Below are positions 1 through 17,012 of a DNA stretch of 50,699 nucleotides, one piece after another. The stretch lies in contig JAPLYJ010000046.1 of assembly GCA_026395655.1 (NCBI GenBank), positions 1 through 50,699 of the forward strand, given 5' to 3'. Position 1 is the stretch's first letter. Every line of letters starts with the position of its first letter. The DNA is from Candidatus Parcubacteria bacterium (lineage in GTDB: Bacteria; Patescibacteriota; Minisyncoccia; UBA6257; JAPLYJ01). The notes below the pieces were generated by a model. The model was given only the letters and a program-made list of their open reading frames with translations, was not told the DNA's origin and did not search any database. A program made the translations under genes and the position numbers.

Positions 1-1005
1 CAATTGGACATTAGCGTCTGAAATGGTTTTTTTCAAACATTCTATAGATCTTTCTACTAAGTCTCTAGTCAATTCTTCCATTTTAGAACGAGTCAACTTC
101 ATGGCTAAATGTTTAGGTCCATCAGAGTTTGATGTGATAAATGGTAAATTGATTTCTGTCTCTAAAACAGTAGAAAGTTCACATTTACCTTTTTCTGCAG
201 CTTCTTTAATTCTTTGTAAAGCTAAAGTATCTTTAGAAAGATCAATTCCGCTTTCTTTTTTGAATTCTGAAATAACCCAATCAATAATTCTTTGGTCAAA
301 ATCATCACCACCTAAATGTGTGTCTCCGCCTGTGGCTAAAACCGTAATGTTTTCACCTGATCCGCCAGATCCGTCAGAAACACCTATCACTTCAATCATG
401 GAAACATCTAAAGTACCTCCACCAAAATCATAGACTACTAATTTAGCGTTATTTTTTTTATTAAAACCATAGGCTACAGCTGCAGCGGTAGGTTCATTCA
501 AAATTCTTTTTACTTTAAAACCGGCAATTTCACCTGCGTTTTTAGTAGCTTGTCTTTGAGAATCATCAAAGTATGCTGGTACAGTAATGATAGCTTCTTC
601 AATTTTTTCTCCGATTCTTTCTTCCGCATCTGATTTTAATTTCTGCAAAACCATGGCTGAAATTTCTTCTGGTTTATAATATTTATCTCCCATCTTAATT
701 TCTACACCACCTGAAGACGATTCTTTCAATTGATAGGGTAAAAGATTTTTGTCTTTAATAACCGTAGCGTCTTGAAAGCGTCTGCCAATTAATCTTTTTG
801 CTGAAAAAATAGTATTTTCCGGATTAGTAATAGCTTGTCTTTTAGCTAAAACTCCTACCAAACGTTCATTGTTTTTTGACATGGCTACAACTGAAGGAGT
901 GGTGCGAGCACCTTCTTTGCTCTCTAAAACTTTAGGTTGGCCACCTTCAAACACTGCTATCTCTGAATAAGTTGTACCTAAGTCTATACCTAATATCTTG
1001 CTCAT
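1..1005 (-). CDS. dnaK: Molecular chaperone DnaK (Hsp70), N-terminal 335 codons; the 3' end runs off the left edge of the window
   Basis: Hand translation from ATG at 1003-1005 gives [26 protein letters not shown]. Further on it gives [13 protein letters not shown], an Hsp70 signature. It is absent from the ORF track because no stop lies inside the window. It follows grpE. Confidence 0.95.
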
Positions 1006-2402: not shown

Positions 2403-3311
2403 ATGCAAATTTTCAAAAACAAGATTACTTGGATGGACATGGTTTCTCCTTCTGAAGAAGAATTAAAAGAAATCAAAGAGAAATATCAAATTCATCCTCT
2501 CATCTTAGAAGAGTTAAAAGTACCTTCCGCTCGTGCTAAAGCAGAAATCTATGATCATTACATTTTTTTAGTATTACATTTTCCTAATTGGAATCCTGTT
2601 ACAGAAACATCAGAACCATTCGAATTAGATGTGGTTTTAGGTAAAGACTTTATCATCACCGCTTCTTTCCAACAACAAGTAGAGATGAGACAAGAACTTT
2701 TCGAAAAAGTAGCTTACGTTGATTTTGAAAAAAAATATTTAGATGAATCTCCTATCGAACTTTTTTCTTTCATTGTTAATAATTTTTTAGATTTTACCAT
2801 GCGCCAAGTCTGTCATATTGATCAAAAGATAGGGAAAATTAGTAGTCAACTTTTTTCTGGATCTGAAATGAAACTTATTAAAGAAATTGCTCACATTAAA
2901 AGAGATGTTCTGGATTTCAGACGTATCTATCGCTGGCTTAAAGAAATTTTAGATTCACTTTGCCGCATAGGTCCTAGAATGTTTGGAGAAAAAAGCAAAG
3001 TATATTTTGATGACTTAGCCGGAGAAAGCTTAAAAGTAGAACATACCATTGAAAGCTTTGCTGATACCATCGAATCATTGGAAGCTACTAACAATTCTTT
3101 AATTGAAAATCATATTAATGTTTTGACCAGAACCTATACCATTATTTCCTTCATTACCTGGCCTACCTTGTTAGTTATCGGTACTTTTCAAATGAATGCC
3201 GTTAACATTCCTATAACAGGATTGCCCTACGATTATTTTATCATGATAGCGTTAGCCTTCATCCCTTCTATAATCTTATATCTTACTCTTAAAAGCAAAA
3301 AACTATTTTAA
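2403..3311 (+). CDS. CorA-family divalent cation transporter-like protein
   Basis: 302 aa. Soluble N-domain plus two C-terminal TM helices. The loop motif reads FQMNAVNIP where canonical CorA has YGMNF..MP. Confidence 0.7.
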   Translation: MQIFKNKITWMDMVSPSEEELKEIKEKYQIHPLILEELKVPSARAKAEIYDHYIFLVLHFPNWNPVTETSEPFELDVVLGKDFIITASFQQQVEMRQELFEKVAYVDFEKKYLDESPIELFSFIVNNFLDFTMRQVCHIDQKIGKISSQLFSGSEMKLIKEIAHIKRDVLDFRRIYRWLKEILDSLCRIGPRMFGEKSKVYFDDLAGESLKVEHTIESFADTIESLEATNNSLIENHINVLTRTYTIISFITWPTLLVIGTFQMNAVNIPITGLPYDYFIMIALAFIPSIILYLTLKSKKLF

Positions 3312-4757
3312 ATGTTAATATATAATTCTCTCAGCCATAAAAAAGAAGAATTTATACCTGTTGATAATACGGTTAAACTTTATAGTTGTGGTCCTACTGT
3401 TTACAGCTACGCTCATATTGGTAATTTGAGAACTTACGTTTTAACAGATTGGCTTAAACGTGTTTTGATATACAATGGTTACAATTTAAAACATGCCATG
3501 AATATTACTGATGTTGGGCATCTAACTTCGGACGCTGACTCAGGCGAAGACAAAATGGAAAAAGCAGCTAAGGAACAAGGTAAAACAGCTTGGGAAATAG
3601 CAGAACATTACGCCCAGGTTTTTTTCTCTGATTTAAAAAAACTCAACACTTTGCCAGCTGATATTATTGCTAAAGCTACAGATCATATTCAAGAAGATAT
3701 TGCGTTAATTAACGAATTAGAAAAACAAGGATTCACATATCGTACTTCTGATGGTATATATTTTGATACATCAAAATTTAAAGAATATGGAGTATTAACA
3801 GGTTTGTCTTGGGAACAATTGAATAATTCTTTAAAGGGTGGTGCTCGTATAGAACTATCTGAAGAAAAAAAGAATATCACTGATTTTTCCTTATGGAAGT
3901 TTTCCCCTGCTAACGAAAAAAGACAAATGGAATGGCCATCTCCTTGGGGCGTTGGTTTTCCCGGATGGCATATAGAATGTTCTGCCATTAATCTTAAATA
4001 CTTAGCTGATGCTTTTGAAAATGATATATTCTACCCTGAAAAAGCTAAAACCATTGATTTCCATACAGGTGGCATCGATTTATTACCCATACATCATACC
4101 AACGAGATTGCTCAGGTAGAACCTATTACACACAAACCTTTTATCAAATATTGGGTTCATGGTGAATTTTTGATTATCAAAGGCGGACGTATGGCTAAAT
4201 CAGAAGGAGGTGGTCTAACACTTTCTACTCTTATTGAAAAAGGATATGATCCTTTAATTTACAGGTATTTTCTCTTAAACGCTCATTACCGCACTAAGAT
4301 GGAATTTGACTACGAAGGATTAGACGCAGCTAACAATTCTTTAAGTTCTTTAAGAGAACTTGTGTGGAATTTAAAAAACAAAAATGATGTTTCTACTGAT
4401 TTAGATCTTTCAAACTATCAAAAAGATTTTAAAGAAGCTGTCAATGATGATTTAAATTTACCTAAAGCTCTTTCTATTGTTTGGACAGCCATCAAAGAAT
4501 ACAAAAAACAACCAGAACAATATAGTAGCAAAAAAACATTAACAATGATTTTAGATTTTGATAAAGTTTTAGGTTTAGATTTAGATAATTGGCAACCTGC
4601 AGAAATTCCTGAAGAAATTAAAGATTTAGCAGAAAAAAGAAATCAATTAAGATTAGAAAAAAAATATGCTGAAGCTGATGAAATTAGAATACAAATTGAA
4701 AAAATGGGTTATAGCTTAAAAGACAATGGAAGTACAATAGATATACAAAAAATATAG
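3312..4757 (+). CDS. cysS: Cysteine--tRNA ligase
   Basis: 481 aa. Class I aaRS HIGN motif (AHIGNLRTY), a KMSKS-like RMAKS, and a WPSPWG..GWHIECS zinc/cysteine pocket. Confidence 0.95.
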   Translation: MLIYNSLSHKKEEFIPVDNTVKLYSCGPTVYSYAHIGNLRTYVLTDWLKRVLIYNGYNLKHAMNITDVGHLTSDADSGEDKMEKAAKEQGKTAWEIAEHYAQVFFSDLKKLNTLPADIIAKATDHIQEDIALINELEKQGFTYRTSDGIYFDTSKFKEYGVLTGLSWEQLNNSLKGGARIELSEEKKNITDFSLWKFSPANEKRQMEWPSPWGVGFPGWHIECSAINLKYLADAFENDIFYPEKAKTIDFHTGGIDLLPIHHTNEIAQVEPITHKPFIKYWVHGEFLIIKGGRMAKSEGGGLTLSTLIEKGYDPLIYRYFLLNAHYRTKMEFDYEGLDAANNSLSSLRELVWNLKNKNDVSTDLDLSNYQKDFKEAVNDDLNLPKALSIVWTAIKEYKKQPEQYSSKKTLTMILDFDKVLGLDLDNWQPAEIPEEIKDLAEKRNQLRLEKKYAEADEIRIQIEKMGYSLKDNGSTIDIQKI

Positions 4758-13929: not shown

Positions 13930-14006
13930 TGGTGGGCGTATCCCGGCTCGAACGGGAGGCCTTACGGATGTGAACCGTACGCTCTAACCAGCTGAGCTAT
14001 ACGCCC
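13930..14006 (-). tRNA. tRNA-Val (anticodon CAC), CCA encoded
   Basis: GGGCGTA acceptor pairs with TACGCCC. D-arm TAGCTCAGCTGGTTAGAGC. Anticodon stem TACGG/CCGTA with loop TTCACAT. T-arm TCCCG-TTCGAGC-CGGGA. 3' end ACCA. Confidence 0.9.
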
Positions 14007-14127
14007 CTTTATATATTTAATATTATACAATATTTTACAAAAAGGCAAAAGGACAAATTAATTATAACCTTATATAAAAGTCTTAAAAGTTGTATAATTA
14101 AAATTAATAATCCTTAATAAGATAAAT

Positions 14128-15030
14128 ATGTTTTTCAAATTTAAAGTATCAAAATTAGCTAATTTGTATTTTTTTATTTCCAACCTTAGCGCTTGGTCTC
14201 CTTATACTTACAAAAAAGATTATAACAATTTTTGGATTGAAAAAACGGGTCCACTTACTAATCAAGAAATAATAGCTTTAACAGATTTTAAGGAATTACA
14301 TCTAAAATATCCCTATGGGCATTCATATCTGGGTAATTTATTCACAAATGAAAAAAATGATTTATCAAAAATTTCCCAAACATTACCTTTAATTGATCAA
14401 AAAATCCTTATACAAACTTTTGAATTATTAGAAACAAGATTTGAAAAAATTTGGAGTATTGAAGAGCCACTCCTAAAAGAGTGGAAAATATTATTAGAAA
14501 AATATTTTGCAGATTTAAATCTCAAATATATTTTTGAGATTTTAGAAATTCTATACGATGTTAAAATAGATTATTCTCAATCAATGGAAGTATTTATTTT
14601 ATTTTCAACTCCAGACAGAACTGGTGGAGAAGCAAGTAATGGTCCAAATAAATTAACATTAAAAATTTCTAGATATGATAAAAATAGAGTTTCTCACGCA
14701 ATAGGAATCATTCTACATGAAATCATTCACTTAATTTTTGAAAAAAAGACTTTTTTCCCAATGATATTTCAAAATGTGAGAGATATTGATAAACAAGTTC
14801 ATTTAATAAAAGAGACTGCCGCTTCTTCTTTGTTCCCTAAAGGAATACTCGGATATCTTTTCTTAAATAATCCCATAGCCACCCAACTTTTACCACAAAT
14901 AGATCAACAACAATCAAAACTATGCATAGAACTTATGCAAAAATATGTAGATAATAAATATAAGCTAGACAATAATTACATTAAACAAATAATTAAAATA
15001 TTATTAAAAAAATACCCCTCTGGTTTATAA
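14128..15030 (+). CDS. Hypothetical protein with a single HExxH zinc-metallopeptidase-type motif
   Basis: 300-aa ORF on the rare plus strand. HEIIH at nt 14716-14730. No other recognisable domain. Confidence 0.55.
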   Translation: MFFKFKVSKLANLYFFISNLSAWSPYTYKKDYNNFWIEKTGPLTNQEIIALTDFKELHLKYPYGHSYLGNLFTNEKNDLSKISQTLPLIDQKILIQTFELLETRFEKIWSIEEPLLKEWKILLEKYFADLNLKYIFEILEILYDVKIDYSQSMEVFILFSTPDRTGGEASNGPNKLTLKISRYDKNRVSHAIGIILHEIIHLIFEKKTFFPMIFQNVRDIDKQVHLIKETAASSLFPKGILGYLFLNNPIATQLLPQIDQQQSKLCIELMQKYVDNKYKLDNNYIKQIIKILLKKYPSGL

Positions 15031-15058
15031 AATTTTTAATTTATAAACACAGAGGGGG
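15015..15058. terminator. Bidirectional hairpin terminator between the convergent HExxH gene and the peptide gene
   Basis: CCCCTCTGGTTTATAAA...TTTATAAACACAGAGGGG is a long inverted repeat with a one-nt bulge. It overlaps the stop codon of the plus-strand gene. Confidence 0.65.
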
Positions 15059-15069
15059 TTACATTCTAC

Positions 15070-15225
15070 TTAATTAGACCAAGGCAAATCCATGTCCGAC
15101 CAATCTCGACCATCATCCCATTCATCCCAGTTATCCCAATCTAAAGTAGATGAGACTTGATCATTGGCAGAGGCGCATTCATAACGAGCAATAGCACCTT
15201 CTAGAGCTGAACATATGGTAGGCAT
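15070..15225 (-). CDS. 51-aa candidate RiPP precursor peptide with a Trp/Asp-rich C-terminus
   Basis: ATG at 15223-15225 lies 1 nt after the rSAM stop (TAAAATG). AGGAGG lies about 8 nt upstream. Product: MPTICSALEGAIARYECASANDQVSSTLDWDNWDEWDDGRDWSDMDLPWSN. The 84-aa track ORF is an upstream read-through into the rSAM gene. Confidence 0.65.
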   Translation of the reverse strand: MPTICSALEGAIARYECASANDQVSSTLDWDNWDEWDDGRDWSDMDLPWSN

Positions 15226-15226
15226 T

Positions 15227-16312
15227 TTATTTACCTCCTTTCTTAATAGATTTAATCTTTTCACGTAGAAAACTAAAAATTTCTCTACGCGTTGCACAAT
15301 AATAATATTCTCCTGATAATCCACCTATACGATGTTGTGAACAACCGTTATGACACGCATTAAACCAAGAACATTTTAAACAACTAGTGGGATAATCGGT
15401 TATTGCTTTTTTATAATCGTAATGTTTATTTCTCCTAAAGATCTCTTTTATACTTTCCTTACCAATATCGCCAAGACGAAATTCTTCAGAACAAGAAAAT
15501 CTATCACATGGATACACATTGCCATTAAAATCCACGCAAAGATAGCTAGAACAAGTACCATTAAATATGCAAAGTTTTGCACGTTTACCTAATACCCCTG
15601 CAACAAAATTATCTATCTCGCGAATGCTTAAATTCTTATCATTTCTGGCTATCCATAATCCTATGAGTGTCTTTAAGAAATAAGTTAACTCTTGTGGTTC
15701 TAAATATTCAGCGGATAAAATATTGTTTTTTTCGTATATATCAAAAATAGGATTTATTCCCCAATTATTGATATTTAGATCATCTACAAAAAAATGAAAG
15801 TCTTTTTGTATACTTACCAAATTCTTTTTGCTTATCGTCTGAATAAAACCCAAAGGAACTTCGTGAGATCTAAGTGTCTTAATACCACGTATGGTATTAT
15901 TAAAAGATCCTTTGCCATTAGAATACTTTCTGAATTTATTATGTGTTTCTTCACAACCATCCAGGCTTACTCCTACCCTAAATTTATGACTTTTAAAAAA
16001 TTGTGCCCAATCATCATTTATGAGAGTCGCATTTGTCTGAATAGAATTTTTAATCACCATATTAGATCGATTGTATTTGTTTTGAAGTTTTATTATTTCT
16101 TCAAAAAAATCTAATCCAGCTAATAACGGTTCCCCTCCATGCCAAATAAATAATGCTGTTTTTTCTGGAAAATCTAACACATCTTTAATCAGTTTATCAA
16201 GTAAATTTAAACTCATAACTGCATCTATTGTCTGATCCGTTCCTCTATAAAAACAATAACTACATTTTAAATTACAAAAATTACCAACTATCTTAGCTAT
16301 TATAGTTACCAT
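15227..16312 (-). CDS. Radical SAM / SPASM-domain peptide-modifying enzyme (anSME-like architecture)
   Basis: CNLKCSYC (CX3CX2C) at nt 16253-16276. GGEPLL motif. C-terminal SPASM signature CX9GX4C (CSSYLCVDFNGNVYPC), then CX2CX5CX3C (CLKCSWFNACHNGC), then a distal Cys. Start placed at ATG 16310-16312, which is preceded by AAAGGAGGAAACAA. Confidence 0.88.
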   Translation of the reverse strand: MVTIIAKIVGNFCNLKCSYCFYRGTDQTIDAVMSLNLLDKLIKDVLDFPEKTALFIWHGGEPLLAGLDFFEEIIKLQNKYNRSNMVIKNSIQTNATLINDDWAQFFKSHKFRVGVSLDGCEETHNKFRKYSNGKGSFNNTIRGIKTLRSHEVPLGFIQTISKKNLVSIQKDFHFFVDDLNINNWGINPIFDIYEKNNILSAEYLEPQELTYFLKTLIGLWIARNDKNLSIREIDNFVAGVLGKRAKLCIFNGTCSSYLCVDFNGNVYPCDRFSCSEEFRLGDIGKESIKEIFRRNKHYDYKKAITDYPTSCLKCSWFNACHNGCSQHRIGGLSGEYYYCATRREIFSFLREKIKSIKKGGK

Positions 16313-16439: not shown

Positions 16440-16468
16440 ATTATAGCAATCTTAAACCATTCTGTCAA
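16440..16468 (-). promoter_or_regulatory. Consensus sigma70 promoter of the rSAM-peptide operon
   Basis: Minus strand TTGACA-17 nt-TATAAT (both hexamers perfect), about 120 nt upstream of the rSAM start. Confidence 0.6.
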
Positions 16469-16571: not shown

Positions 16572-16600
16572 AAATTAAAAATCCCGCTCTCGCGGGATTT
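16572..16600 (-). terminator. Rho-independent terminator after rplL
   Basis: Minus strand AAATCCCGC-GAGA-GCGGGATTT followed by a T-rich tract. Confidence 0.8.
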
Positions 16601-16613
16601 AATCAAATCTACC

Positions 16614-17012
16614 TTATTTTATTTCTATCGCAGCACCAGCTTCTTCCAATTTCTTTTTCATTTCCTCAGCGTCTTTTTGAGGAATATTCTCTTTAACAGG
16701 TTTTGGTGCACCATCTACTAAATCTTTAGCTTCTTTTAAACCTAAACCGGTTAATTCACGTAAAGCTTTGATAACCTGAATTTTAGCTTGACCACCATCT
16801 TTTAAAACTACAGTAAAGGCAGTCTTCTCTTCAGCAGGGCCTCCTTCAGCGGCTCCACCAGCTGCAGGACCTGCAACCATCTGAGGCATGGCTGAAACAC
16901 CAAACTTTTCCTCTAAAACTTTGACTAATTCAGACAACTCTAACACAGTTAAACCTTCTATCTGACTCACGATATCTTCGTACTTACTGGGTACTTTTTT
17001 TTCTTCAGACAT
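16614..17012 (-). CDS. rplL: 50S ribosomal protein L7/L12
   Basis: 132 aa. Ala/Gly/Pro hinge and a C-terminal [28 protein letters not shown]. Confidence 0.95.

Follow-up and report, generated by a model that had tools for sequence, protein, structure and literature searches.

Enzymes that form three-residue cyclophanes (3-CyFEs) are radical S-adenosylmethionine (rSAM) proteins with a SPASM domain that connect a ring carbon of an aromatic residue to the C-beta two residues downstream, on aromatic1-X2-X3 motifs (PMC11499958). Two examples are OscB, which joins Trp C7 to the C-beta of Asn or Asp, and XncB, which joins Trp C6 to the C-beta of Arg or Asn (PMC11002830). Other linkages are found in dynobactin, where Trp C6 is bound to the C-beta of an Asn at i+3 and a His-Tyr C-N link is also present (PMC11002830), and in darobactin, a fused bicycle for which DarE, acting on the sequence WNWSK, forms an ether (Trp-O-C-beta) and a C-C bond between Trp and Lys (PMC9055067). 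Here, these systems are compared with a locus on contig JAPLYJ010000046.1 (assembly GCA_026395655.1) of a Candidatus Parcubacteria bacterium, of which a stretch of 50,699 nucleotides, hereafter the window, was analysed. The locus consists of a gene for an rSAM/SPASM protein, a small gene immediately behind it for a Trp-rich acidic peptide, and a convergent gene for a protein with an HExxH motif. Its host lineage, the Patescibacteria (Candidate Phyla Radiation), comprises uncultured bacteria with tiny genomes. In the reading that we consider probable, which is argued by analogy with characterised enzymes, the locus represents an undescribed, Patescibacteria-wide family of ribosomally synthesised peptides with post-translational modifications (RiPPs) of the triceptide type, in which the rSAM enzyme would link the Trp ring to the C-beta at +2 and the zincin-like HExxH protein is a candidate leader peptidase.

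The minus-strand translation of window positions 15324..15070 reads ...KMPTICSALEGAIARYECASANDQVSSTLDWDNWDEWDDGRDWSDMDLPWSN up to the stop, and from the ATG at 15225 it gives the 51-residue peptide MPTICSALEGAIARYECASANDQVSSTLDWDNWDEWDDGRDWSDMDLPWSN with the core WDNWDEWDDGRDWSDMDLPWSN. In order, the core units are WDN WDE WDD grd WSD mdlp WSN, followed directly by the stop, as a preliminary description of this DNA had already read them: all five Trp have N, E or D at +2 and the first three units are contiguous. The count of 11 Asp/Glu given there was wrong, residues 29-51 containing 9 Asp/Glu and reaching 11 only if two Asn are counted; Lys and Arg are few in the core. The TAA stop codon of the rSAM gene (15229-15227) is followed 1 nt later by the peptide ATG, and a Shine-Dalgarno site lies within the rSAM coding sequence (Table 1). 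Two close copies of the peptide, 98% and 86% identical, are annotated as genes in other assemblies within a large protein collection. The 86% copy has the same gene order on its contig, and its core differs from that of the window by two replacements, R40P and M45L, neither of them at a Trp or +2 position, and otherwise by three synonymous changes. Because of the AGGAGG site, the gene calls in two other assemblies and the same placement behind rSAM genes of 44-62% identity, the 51-aa open reading frame (ORF) is judged from sequence to be a real gene, translationally coupled to the rSAM/SPASM gene. A pattern search of the whole 50.7-kb window returned a single leader-plus-Trp-tail ORF, 15225..15070. 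For the window alone, the 25-residue core was shuffled 20000 times: 141 shuffles reach five of five W-x-[DNE] units (p ~0.007), and its two W..W+3 pairs are not significant (2847/20000 shuffles). As the periodicity thus lacks significance in this single sequence, the argument rests on a comparison of the family.

This comparison comprised 32 non-redundant homologous peptides with 100 core Trp, shuffles being confined to the Trp-containing segment; many of the peptides are related, so that the motif counts overstate independent events, and the W-x-[DN] rule is present in visibly divergent subfamilies. W-x-[DNE] occurs at 80 of the 100 Trp against 32.4 expected (0/5000 shuffles reach 80), and Trp is found again at +3 in 38 cases against 9.3 expected (0/5000 shuffles), three residues being the commonest gap between successive Trp (38/68 pairs). 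At +2 the residues are D46, N29, Q8, E5, H4 and K3 of 99, the +1 position is variable (D, G, E, P, Q, S), and +3 is occupied by W38, G15, Q7 and V6, with Asn rare. Trp without an aromatic residue at +3 have D/N at +2 in 45 of 54 cases, whereas Trp without an aromatic residue at -3 have D/N at -1 in just 10 of 49. By these sequence counts the motif is directional, W-x-[DN] and not [DN]-W, the latter reading being ruled out. Aromatic runs with a period of three comprise three or four residues in 18 of 29 peptides and at least two in 27 of 29. The Trp position is taken in some members by Phe, Tyr and occasionally His, for instance WPN..FDNYDDFVDFPD at locus L090, and the use of Phe and Tyr fits an aromatic-x-X rule. 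The number of aromatic-x-[DNEQ] units per peptide ranges from 1 to 7, the net charge of the core is -3 to -13 in most peptides, and W-[GD]-D-W-D-[DN] is a common central block. Upstream of the core, 29 aligned peptides share the leader consensus A-I-x-G-A-L-x-R (A 27, I 21, G 23, A 23, L 19), in which the final R (29/29) was demanded by the search pattern and is not independent evidence.

Homologous peptides thus keep the Trp spacing and the W-x-[D/N] pattern on which the preliminary description had built. Its three-residue periodicity holds as the family-wide enrichment of Trp at +3, whereas strict periodicity is not upheld across the family. The peptide stops at its last unit in the window and its near relatives, but has 2-12 further residues elsewhere, and among the third residues proposed, Asp and Asn are preferred family-wide but Glu is rare (5/99). 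The central idea, that an rSAM/SPASM enzyme cross-links a substrate marked by repeated Trp-x-X units, is supported at the level of sequence by the gene coupling, the conservation of the pair and the family motif. A large peptide sub-family (L129-L155) ends in the nearly invariant W-x-[DQE]-W-x-D-W-[DN]-N-G-H-[AST]-D-[SG], and the Gly-His conserved behind its last triplet points to a further site for recognition or modification.

The module recurs widely. Relatives of the rSAM enzyme number 2021 proteins at E <= 1e-20, of which the best 120 are 43-62% identical to it; more than 120 clusters lie at or above 43% identity, and the named sources of the best 120 are all Patescibacteria (Parcubacteria, Pacebacteria, Wolfebacteria). 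Seven relatives were placed on contigs and all seven have a small same-strand ORF of 49-70 aa immediately downstream. At loci L003 and L084-L090 the peptide stands directly behind an rSAM gene of 44-62% identity and the neighbours differ from locus to locus. The closest distinct relative, L003 (rSAM 62% identical), encodes ...LSLEGAIVRLQNEVSNEQALIAASDDWDTNWDKWDDIDEGTSLDLPWPNDGSV; other examples are ...KAVSAALARL...GWRNWEDWDDYENSGAWREEGPERV (L088), ...SAIKGALDRM...DWKNWPDWENETDFPNWENIGGTPPR (L087), ...EAIAGALSRM...FGDWDDWDNGHSDGPSD (L089) and ...NAVLGALKRI...NWPNTYPFDNYDDFVDFPDATPPK (L090). As a search query the 51-aa peptide is weak, known family members scoring just 2-34 bits with phmmer, and the peptides have no match in NCBIfam at E<=10 and none in Pfam.

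A convergent homologue of the HExxH protein, of ~295-300 aa, is present in five of six distinct long loci. An independent metagenome scan was seeded with the alignment of this ~300-aa protein (A2) and not with the rSAM enzyme or the peptide, and returned 79 loci. In 45 of them the contig runs on for 1.5 kb or more past the 3' end of the HExxH gene, and 30 of these 45, with the threshold set at 38% identity, have a convergent rSAM gene, 40-48% identical to that of the window; a Trp-rich acidic peptide stands right behind it in nearly all loci whose contigs reach that far. As a control, 80 loci of ordinary anaerobic sulfatase-maturating enzymes (anSMEs; 513 kb), from Clostridia and similar and with 27-34% identity to the rSAM enzyme among the matches listed, were taken from a contig scan with the rSAM alignment that had settled on the generic motifs FIWHGGEP and CNLRCxYCF. 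No leader-plus-Trp peptide occurs in these 80 loci. An ORF with a sulfatase signature is found in 19 of them and in none of the 90 Patescibacteria loci (the window and 89 related ones, at the level of the locus).

Several loci carry additional genes. L092 has one HExxH gene (2474-3391, plus strand) between two different rSAM-plus-peptide pairs (L092:683-4734), the first with the rSAM gene at 3634-4734 and the peptide ...DDQWDGEWTEWEDVNYP at 3480-3641 (both minus), the second with the rSAM gene at 800-1990 and an unusually basic peptide of 36 aa, MRRKCEAIKGALSRLKNAKGVSFRRWGDSWTKFPKE, at 683-793 (both minus). A second, more distant rSAM gene (32% identity) is found upstream at L106. Directly upstream of the module at L084 (756-3068) there is an unrelated RiPP-like set of a 38-aa ORF, a 476-aa rSAM/SPASM protein and a 220-aa ORF without Pfam match. 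The HExxH gene is adjoined at L086 (6479-7765) and L090 (6748-8001) by an extra radical SAM gene without SPASM (417-428 aa), and at L087 (6300-6758) and L089 (6395-6892) by a NUDIX hydrolase gene; both are absent from the window.

The rSAM enzyme of the window contains the motif CNLKCSYC (CX3CX2C) at residues 14-21 and a complete set of SPASM Cys (C249, C255, C270, C312, C315, C321, C325, C340), and it has no N-terminal extension of the RiPP recognition element (RRE) type. Its best NCBIfam match is the anaerobic sulfatase maturase TIGR03942 (297.5 bits vs a cutoff of 349.45, E 1.4e-88). Among characterised peptide maturases the dynobactin enzyme DynA scores highest (NF041298; 238.5 bits, cutoff 450, E 1e-70), with the same domain architecture and a full-length alignment over profile positions 10-354 of 356. 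Bit scores and cutoffs are 174/650 for DarW and 167/650 for DarE; among cyclophane synthases they are 165/310 for GrrM/OscB (TIGR04261), 147/425 for AmcB (NF041718), 131/445 for YhhB (NF041707), 97/450 for XyeB (TIGR04496) and 94/370 for FxsB (TIGR04269); and they are 162/340 for PapB and 97/453 for QhpD. No curated NCBIfam cutoff is reached by the window enzyme, and the 3-CyFE cutoffs are not reached by 36 relatives either; the TIGR03942 score is below its cutoff in 36 of 36 family members tested, 297.5 bits being the best, and the best DynA E-value among the 36 relatives is 2.3e-74. The closest solved structure is anSMEcpe (4K36/4K37, E 3e-60), other matches in the PDB being the triceptide synthase ChlB (9GM3, E 2e-17) and 5WGG ('Radical SAM domain protein', E 4e-12). 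In the alignment to anSMEcpe the residues matching Tyr24 and Cys276-Asp277 are conserved. By its sequence, then, the enzyme is a member of an anSME/DynA-like clade of its own, outside the curated 3-CyFE, StrB and DarE families.

Like the window, the triceptide systems (XncB/XyeB, OscB/GrrM, MscB/FxsB, YxdB, HaaB, YhhB, HtkB, ChlB) have repeated aromatic1-X2-X3 units, several per peptide, and an rSAM enzyme with SPASM but no separate RRE protein, and Phe or Tyr may replace Trp. Trp-x-Asn/Asp are the motifs that OscB cross-links, and Trp-x-Asn/Arg those of XncB (PMC11002830, PMC11499958). Both an adjacent radical SAM gene with SPASM and an aromatic1-X2-X3 core, by which triceptides are recognised, are present in the window, whereas its enzyme falls outside the recognised 3-CyFE families, under every curated cutoff and nearer to anSME and DynA (ChlB E 2e-17 vs anSME 3e-60). 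Further differences are a peptide that matches no NCBIfam or Pfam model, a host among the Patescibacteria and the frequent HExxH partner. The reaction logic would accordingly be a known one, and the enzyme clade, the precursor family, the partner protein and the host lineage appear to be new.

By analogy with these enzymes, the leader would dock the peptide on the rSAM enzyme, and a 5'-deoxyadenosyl radical would take the C-beta hydrogen of the Asp or Asn at +2 (or of Glu, Gln, Lys or His). The carbon radical so formed would add to the Trp indole two residues upstream, and re-aromatisation, for which the auxiliary clusters of the SPASM domain would serve as the electron sink, would leave a three-residue Trp-to-C-beta cyclophane and a loss of 2 Da per unit. 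The window peptide could acquire up to five rings in this way, the first three of them abutting. The HExxH protein may then remove the leader, and a peptide that is small, rigid and strongly anionic would result. The family rule of aromatic-x-Asp/Asn with a free middle position matches the substrate logic of OscB and XncB; the i+3 rule of DynA is not matched, because +3 is not a conserved donor.

The partner in this scheme, the product of the convergent gene, has no match in Pfam or NCBIfam. H197, E198, H201 and E229 are all invariant in the initial alignment; in a set of 37 diverse members this still holds for H201 and E229, and nearly for H197 and E198. A word-indexed search with this alignment found 5 proteins only, and the family was sized by a full HMMER scan, which, with clustering at 50% identity, gave 597 representatives for a threshold of E <= 1e-3 and 400 for E <= 1e-10. 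The members are single-domain proteins of ~290-350 aa. In an AlphaFold2 model (mean predicted local distance difference test, pLDDT, 77.5; predicted template modelling score, pTM, 0.78) three strands (152-181) are followed by a helix with HExxH (185-205) and a helix with Glu229 (220-235), and this order of strand, helix(HExxH) and helix(Glu) is that expected for a gluzincin-type catalytic core. Foldseek comparison of the model with the PDB gave nothing significant (top match M61 aminopeptidase, E 0.46), nor did sequence-profile searches of the PDB (Wss1p, E 0.11). Sub-threshold matches to SprT-like Pfam families cover the strand-plus-HExxH region in 12 of the 37 members (best E 0.0012). From its sequence and predicted fold the protein is a candidate zinc metallopeptidase of the zincin type, and a role as leader peptidase of the module is plausible.

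Several points weigh against the triceptide reading as a whole. The chemistry is assigned by analogy, the rSAM enzyme fails every family cutoff, and the 3-CyFE models score below anSME and DynA. The characterised peptide maturase closest to the enzyme, DynA, joins Trp with the i+3 residue and forms a C-N bond besides, and for this reason bond type, indole position and ring size are not readable from sequence or homology. The module contains no transporter. The evidence for a protease consists of the motif, the predicted topology and the sub-threshold similarity to SprT and Wss1. Finally, 15 of the 45 HExxH loci (among them L091, L097-L100, L115, L138, L143, L150 and L160) are without an adjacent rSAM gene or peptide, and at L084, a locus found through its rSAM gene, no HExxH gene lies within 4 kb. 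Because about a third of the HExxH genes lack the rSAM gene and L084 lacks the HExxH gene, the latter is a frequent but not an obligatory partner, and the 15 loci with an HExxH gene but neither rSAM gene nor peptide indicate that the protein may have a role beyond the module. At L091, whose HExxH protein is the closest relative (60% identity), the gene is in tandem with a second HExxH paralogue that is apparently split. The sole sign of this family outside Patescibacteria among the loci examined comes from L048, in a metagenome-assembled genome of a Firmicute (Fermentithermobacillaceae). There, at 1367-1861 and ~1.1 kb upstream of a gene of the ordinary anSME-like kind, lies a homologue fragment that contains an in-frame stop and is 27% identical over 172 aa (E 4e-16); a Trp-rich peptide was not found at this locus.

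The same precursor and enzyme could also give another linkage, such as a DarE-type aryl-O-C-beta ether, a DynA-type Trp(i)-C-beta(i+3) bond or a C-N bond. The DynA, DarW and DarE models (238, 174 and 167 bits) outrank those of the triceptide synthases (<=165), and the enzyme shares the architecture of DynA and, in contrast to the 50-80-residue N-terminal extension of DarE and DarW, has none. DarE makes both an ether and a C-C bond on W-N-W-S-K (PMC9055067), and dynobactin has i+3 and C-N links (PMC11002830). Trp-initiated cores, C-beta hydrogen abstraction and Trp-linked rings are shared ground with DynA, DarE and DarW. However, all three models score far under their cutoffs, the window reaching about half of that of DynA (238.5 vs 450), and the +3 position is not a conserved sp3 donor, whereas +2 is D/N in 75 of 99 cases. 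Dynobactin and darobactin cores are single, short and basic, whereas those of the window family are repeated, contiguous and polyanionic. Cores of the type WNWSKSF or WNSNVHSYRF are absent from the window locus, as is a DarBCD-like ATP-binding cassette exporter, the neighbours being rplL, rplJ, the HExxH protein and tyrS. Such a linkage is therefore unlikely, if not negligibly so.

Less probable again, in our view, is a peptide-derived cofactor, formed by excision of a modified Trp-Asp unit by the peptidase as for pyrroloquinoline quinone (PQQ) or mycofactocin, or a polyanionic peptide that binds metal. A minimal module of enzyme, peptide and putative peptidase with no transporter or immunity gene, its retention in many small Patescibacteria genomes beside housekeeping genes, and strongly acidic cores with the common W-[GD]-D-W-D-[DN] block would all be in keeping with such a function. 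The cofactor precursors PqqA and MftA have invariant modified residues, whereas here the number of units (1-7), their spacing and their flanks (0-12 residues after the last unit) vary widely. The two different rSAM/peptide pairs of L092 are also more typical of diversifying natural products.

It is very improbable that the enzyme is a genuine anSME that makes formylglycine, with a small ORF that is either unrelated or oxidised on Ser or Cys. anSME (TIGR03942; PDB 4K36-4K39) is the closest family by sequence and structure, with the same length, the same two sets of auxiliary-cluster Cys and the shared equivalents of Tyr24 and Cys276-Asp277, and it too attacks a side-chain C-beta hydrogen. Against this stand a score below the TIGR03942 cutoff in all 36 members, the sulfatase-signature ORFs in 0/90 Patescibacteria loci vs 19/80 true anSME loci, and a small co-transcribed peptide without C/S-x-P/A-x-R motif and with no sulfatase nearby. 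A target motif [CS]-x-[PA]-x-R was sought in the leader and rejected, being present in just 1 of 29 peptides, and Ser and Cys are not conserved in the peptides, whereas W-x-[DN] is.

Thioethers of the ranthipeptide or QhpD type, from C5 and C17 of the leader region to Asp or Glu side chains, are just as improbable. The window peptide has these two Cys, in CSALE and CASAND contexts, and many Asp/Glu, and the score is 162 bits for PapB, which forms a thioether from Cys to Asp, and 97 bits for QhpD. Both scores are far under their cutoffs, and 15 of 29 homologous peptides, that of L003 included, have no Cys at all, with Cys inside the Trp segment in two only. Cys thioethers are therefore not the family reaction, since Cys is not conserved; an extra Cys modification specific to the window is possible. 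That the ORF is a chance one, or encodes a small acidic protein that stays unmodified, is scarcely credible, even though expression and modification of the peptide are predictions from sequence and the window by itself shows no significant periodicity, given an ORF conserved behind deeply divergent rSAM homologues with a leader motif and a directional core motif, the Shine-Dalgarno site and translational coupling, and replacements that spare the Trp and +2 positions in the 86% orthologue.

The positions of the module and its surroundings are listed in Table 1. The promoter-like site, ~125 nt upstream of the rSAM start codon, is the sole perfect match in the region and is a consensus match only. 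Because this site and the hairpin separate the rSAM-peptide pair from rplL, the two genes look like their own transcription unit. A functional tie to the adjacent ribosomal protein genes was rejected: the flanks differ in every genome, and the terminator and promoter-like site set the module apart from rplL. Beyond the HExxH gene lie tyrS, mraZ and rsmH. At 28.5%, against 30-36% elsewhere, the G+C content of the window is lowest in 14001-16000, a segment that takes in the peptide and HExxH genes and the 3' part of the rSAM gene.

Table 1. Features of the module and its surroundings, in window coordinates
Feature	Position	Strand	Remarks
Precursor peptide gene, 51 aa + stop	15070..15225	minus	ATG at 15225, stop 15072..15070
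Core, five Trp-x-(Asn/Glu/Asp) units, predicted cross-link sites	15073..15138	minus	residues 30-51
Leader motif A-L-E-G-A-I-A-R	15184..15207	minus	residues 7-14; family consensus A-I-x-G-A-L-x-R
Shine-Dalgarno AGGAGG	15234..15239	minus	within rSAM gene 3' end, 8 nt before peptide ATG
Radical SAM/SPASM peptide-maturase gene, 362 aa	15227..16315	minus	from MVTIIAK; PF04055 + PF13186
Convergent 300-aa protein, unannotated family	14128..15030	plus	HExxH residues 197-201 (nt 14716-14730), Glu229 (nt 14812-14814)
Promoter-like site TTGACA-17-TATAAT	16440..16468	minus	TG before -10; 12/12 match to sigma-70 consensus
Terminator-like hairpin	16579..16600	minus	just downstream of rplL; 9-bp stem, 5 GC pairs, T-rich tail
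rplL (L7/L12)	16614..17012		upstream of module; rplJ beyond

A literature search, covering mostly open-access literature and leaving room for an earlier listing in a sequence network, found no paper tying Patescibacteria or Parcubacteria to cyclophane, triceptide or RiPP rSAM chemistry, and in the literature searched there are essentially no characterised natural products attributed to Patescibacteria. The chemistry expected here would be unsurprising to a RiPP specialist, and the interest lies in the conservation of the module across Patescibacteria and in its new zincin partner. A further-reaching version, which we regard as rather doubtful, holds that an anSME/DynA-like clade largely confined to Patescibacteria makes a ladder of contiguous Trp rings, possibly with a new linkage or ring pattern, that it forms a minimal pathway with the new zincin family, kept in many genomes of ultra-small episymbionts, and that the product is a lineage-wide functional molecule (a cofactor, a chelator or a host-interaction factor) and not an occasional antibiotic.

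With an enzyme of ~360 aa, a peptide of ~50 aa and a candidate peptidase, the module is compact and experimentally tractable. If the predicted chemistry is true, it would add a new clade of cyclophane synthases that bridges anSME, DynA and the triceptide synthases, with substrates of up to four contiguous ring-forming units; if the linkage is instead an ether, an i+3 bond or a C-N bond, a very simple repeat substrate would be undergoing a new reaction. The triceptide reading, if true, would also provide a first handle on a peptide in which these symbionts invest, and the pathway would be among the first defined peptide pathways of the lineage.

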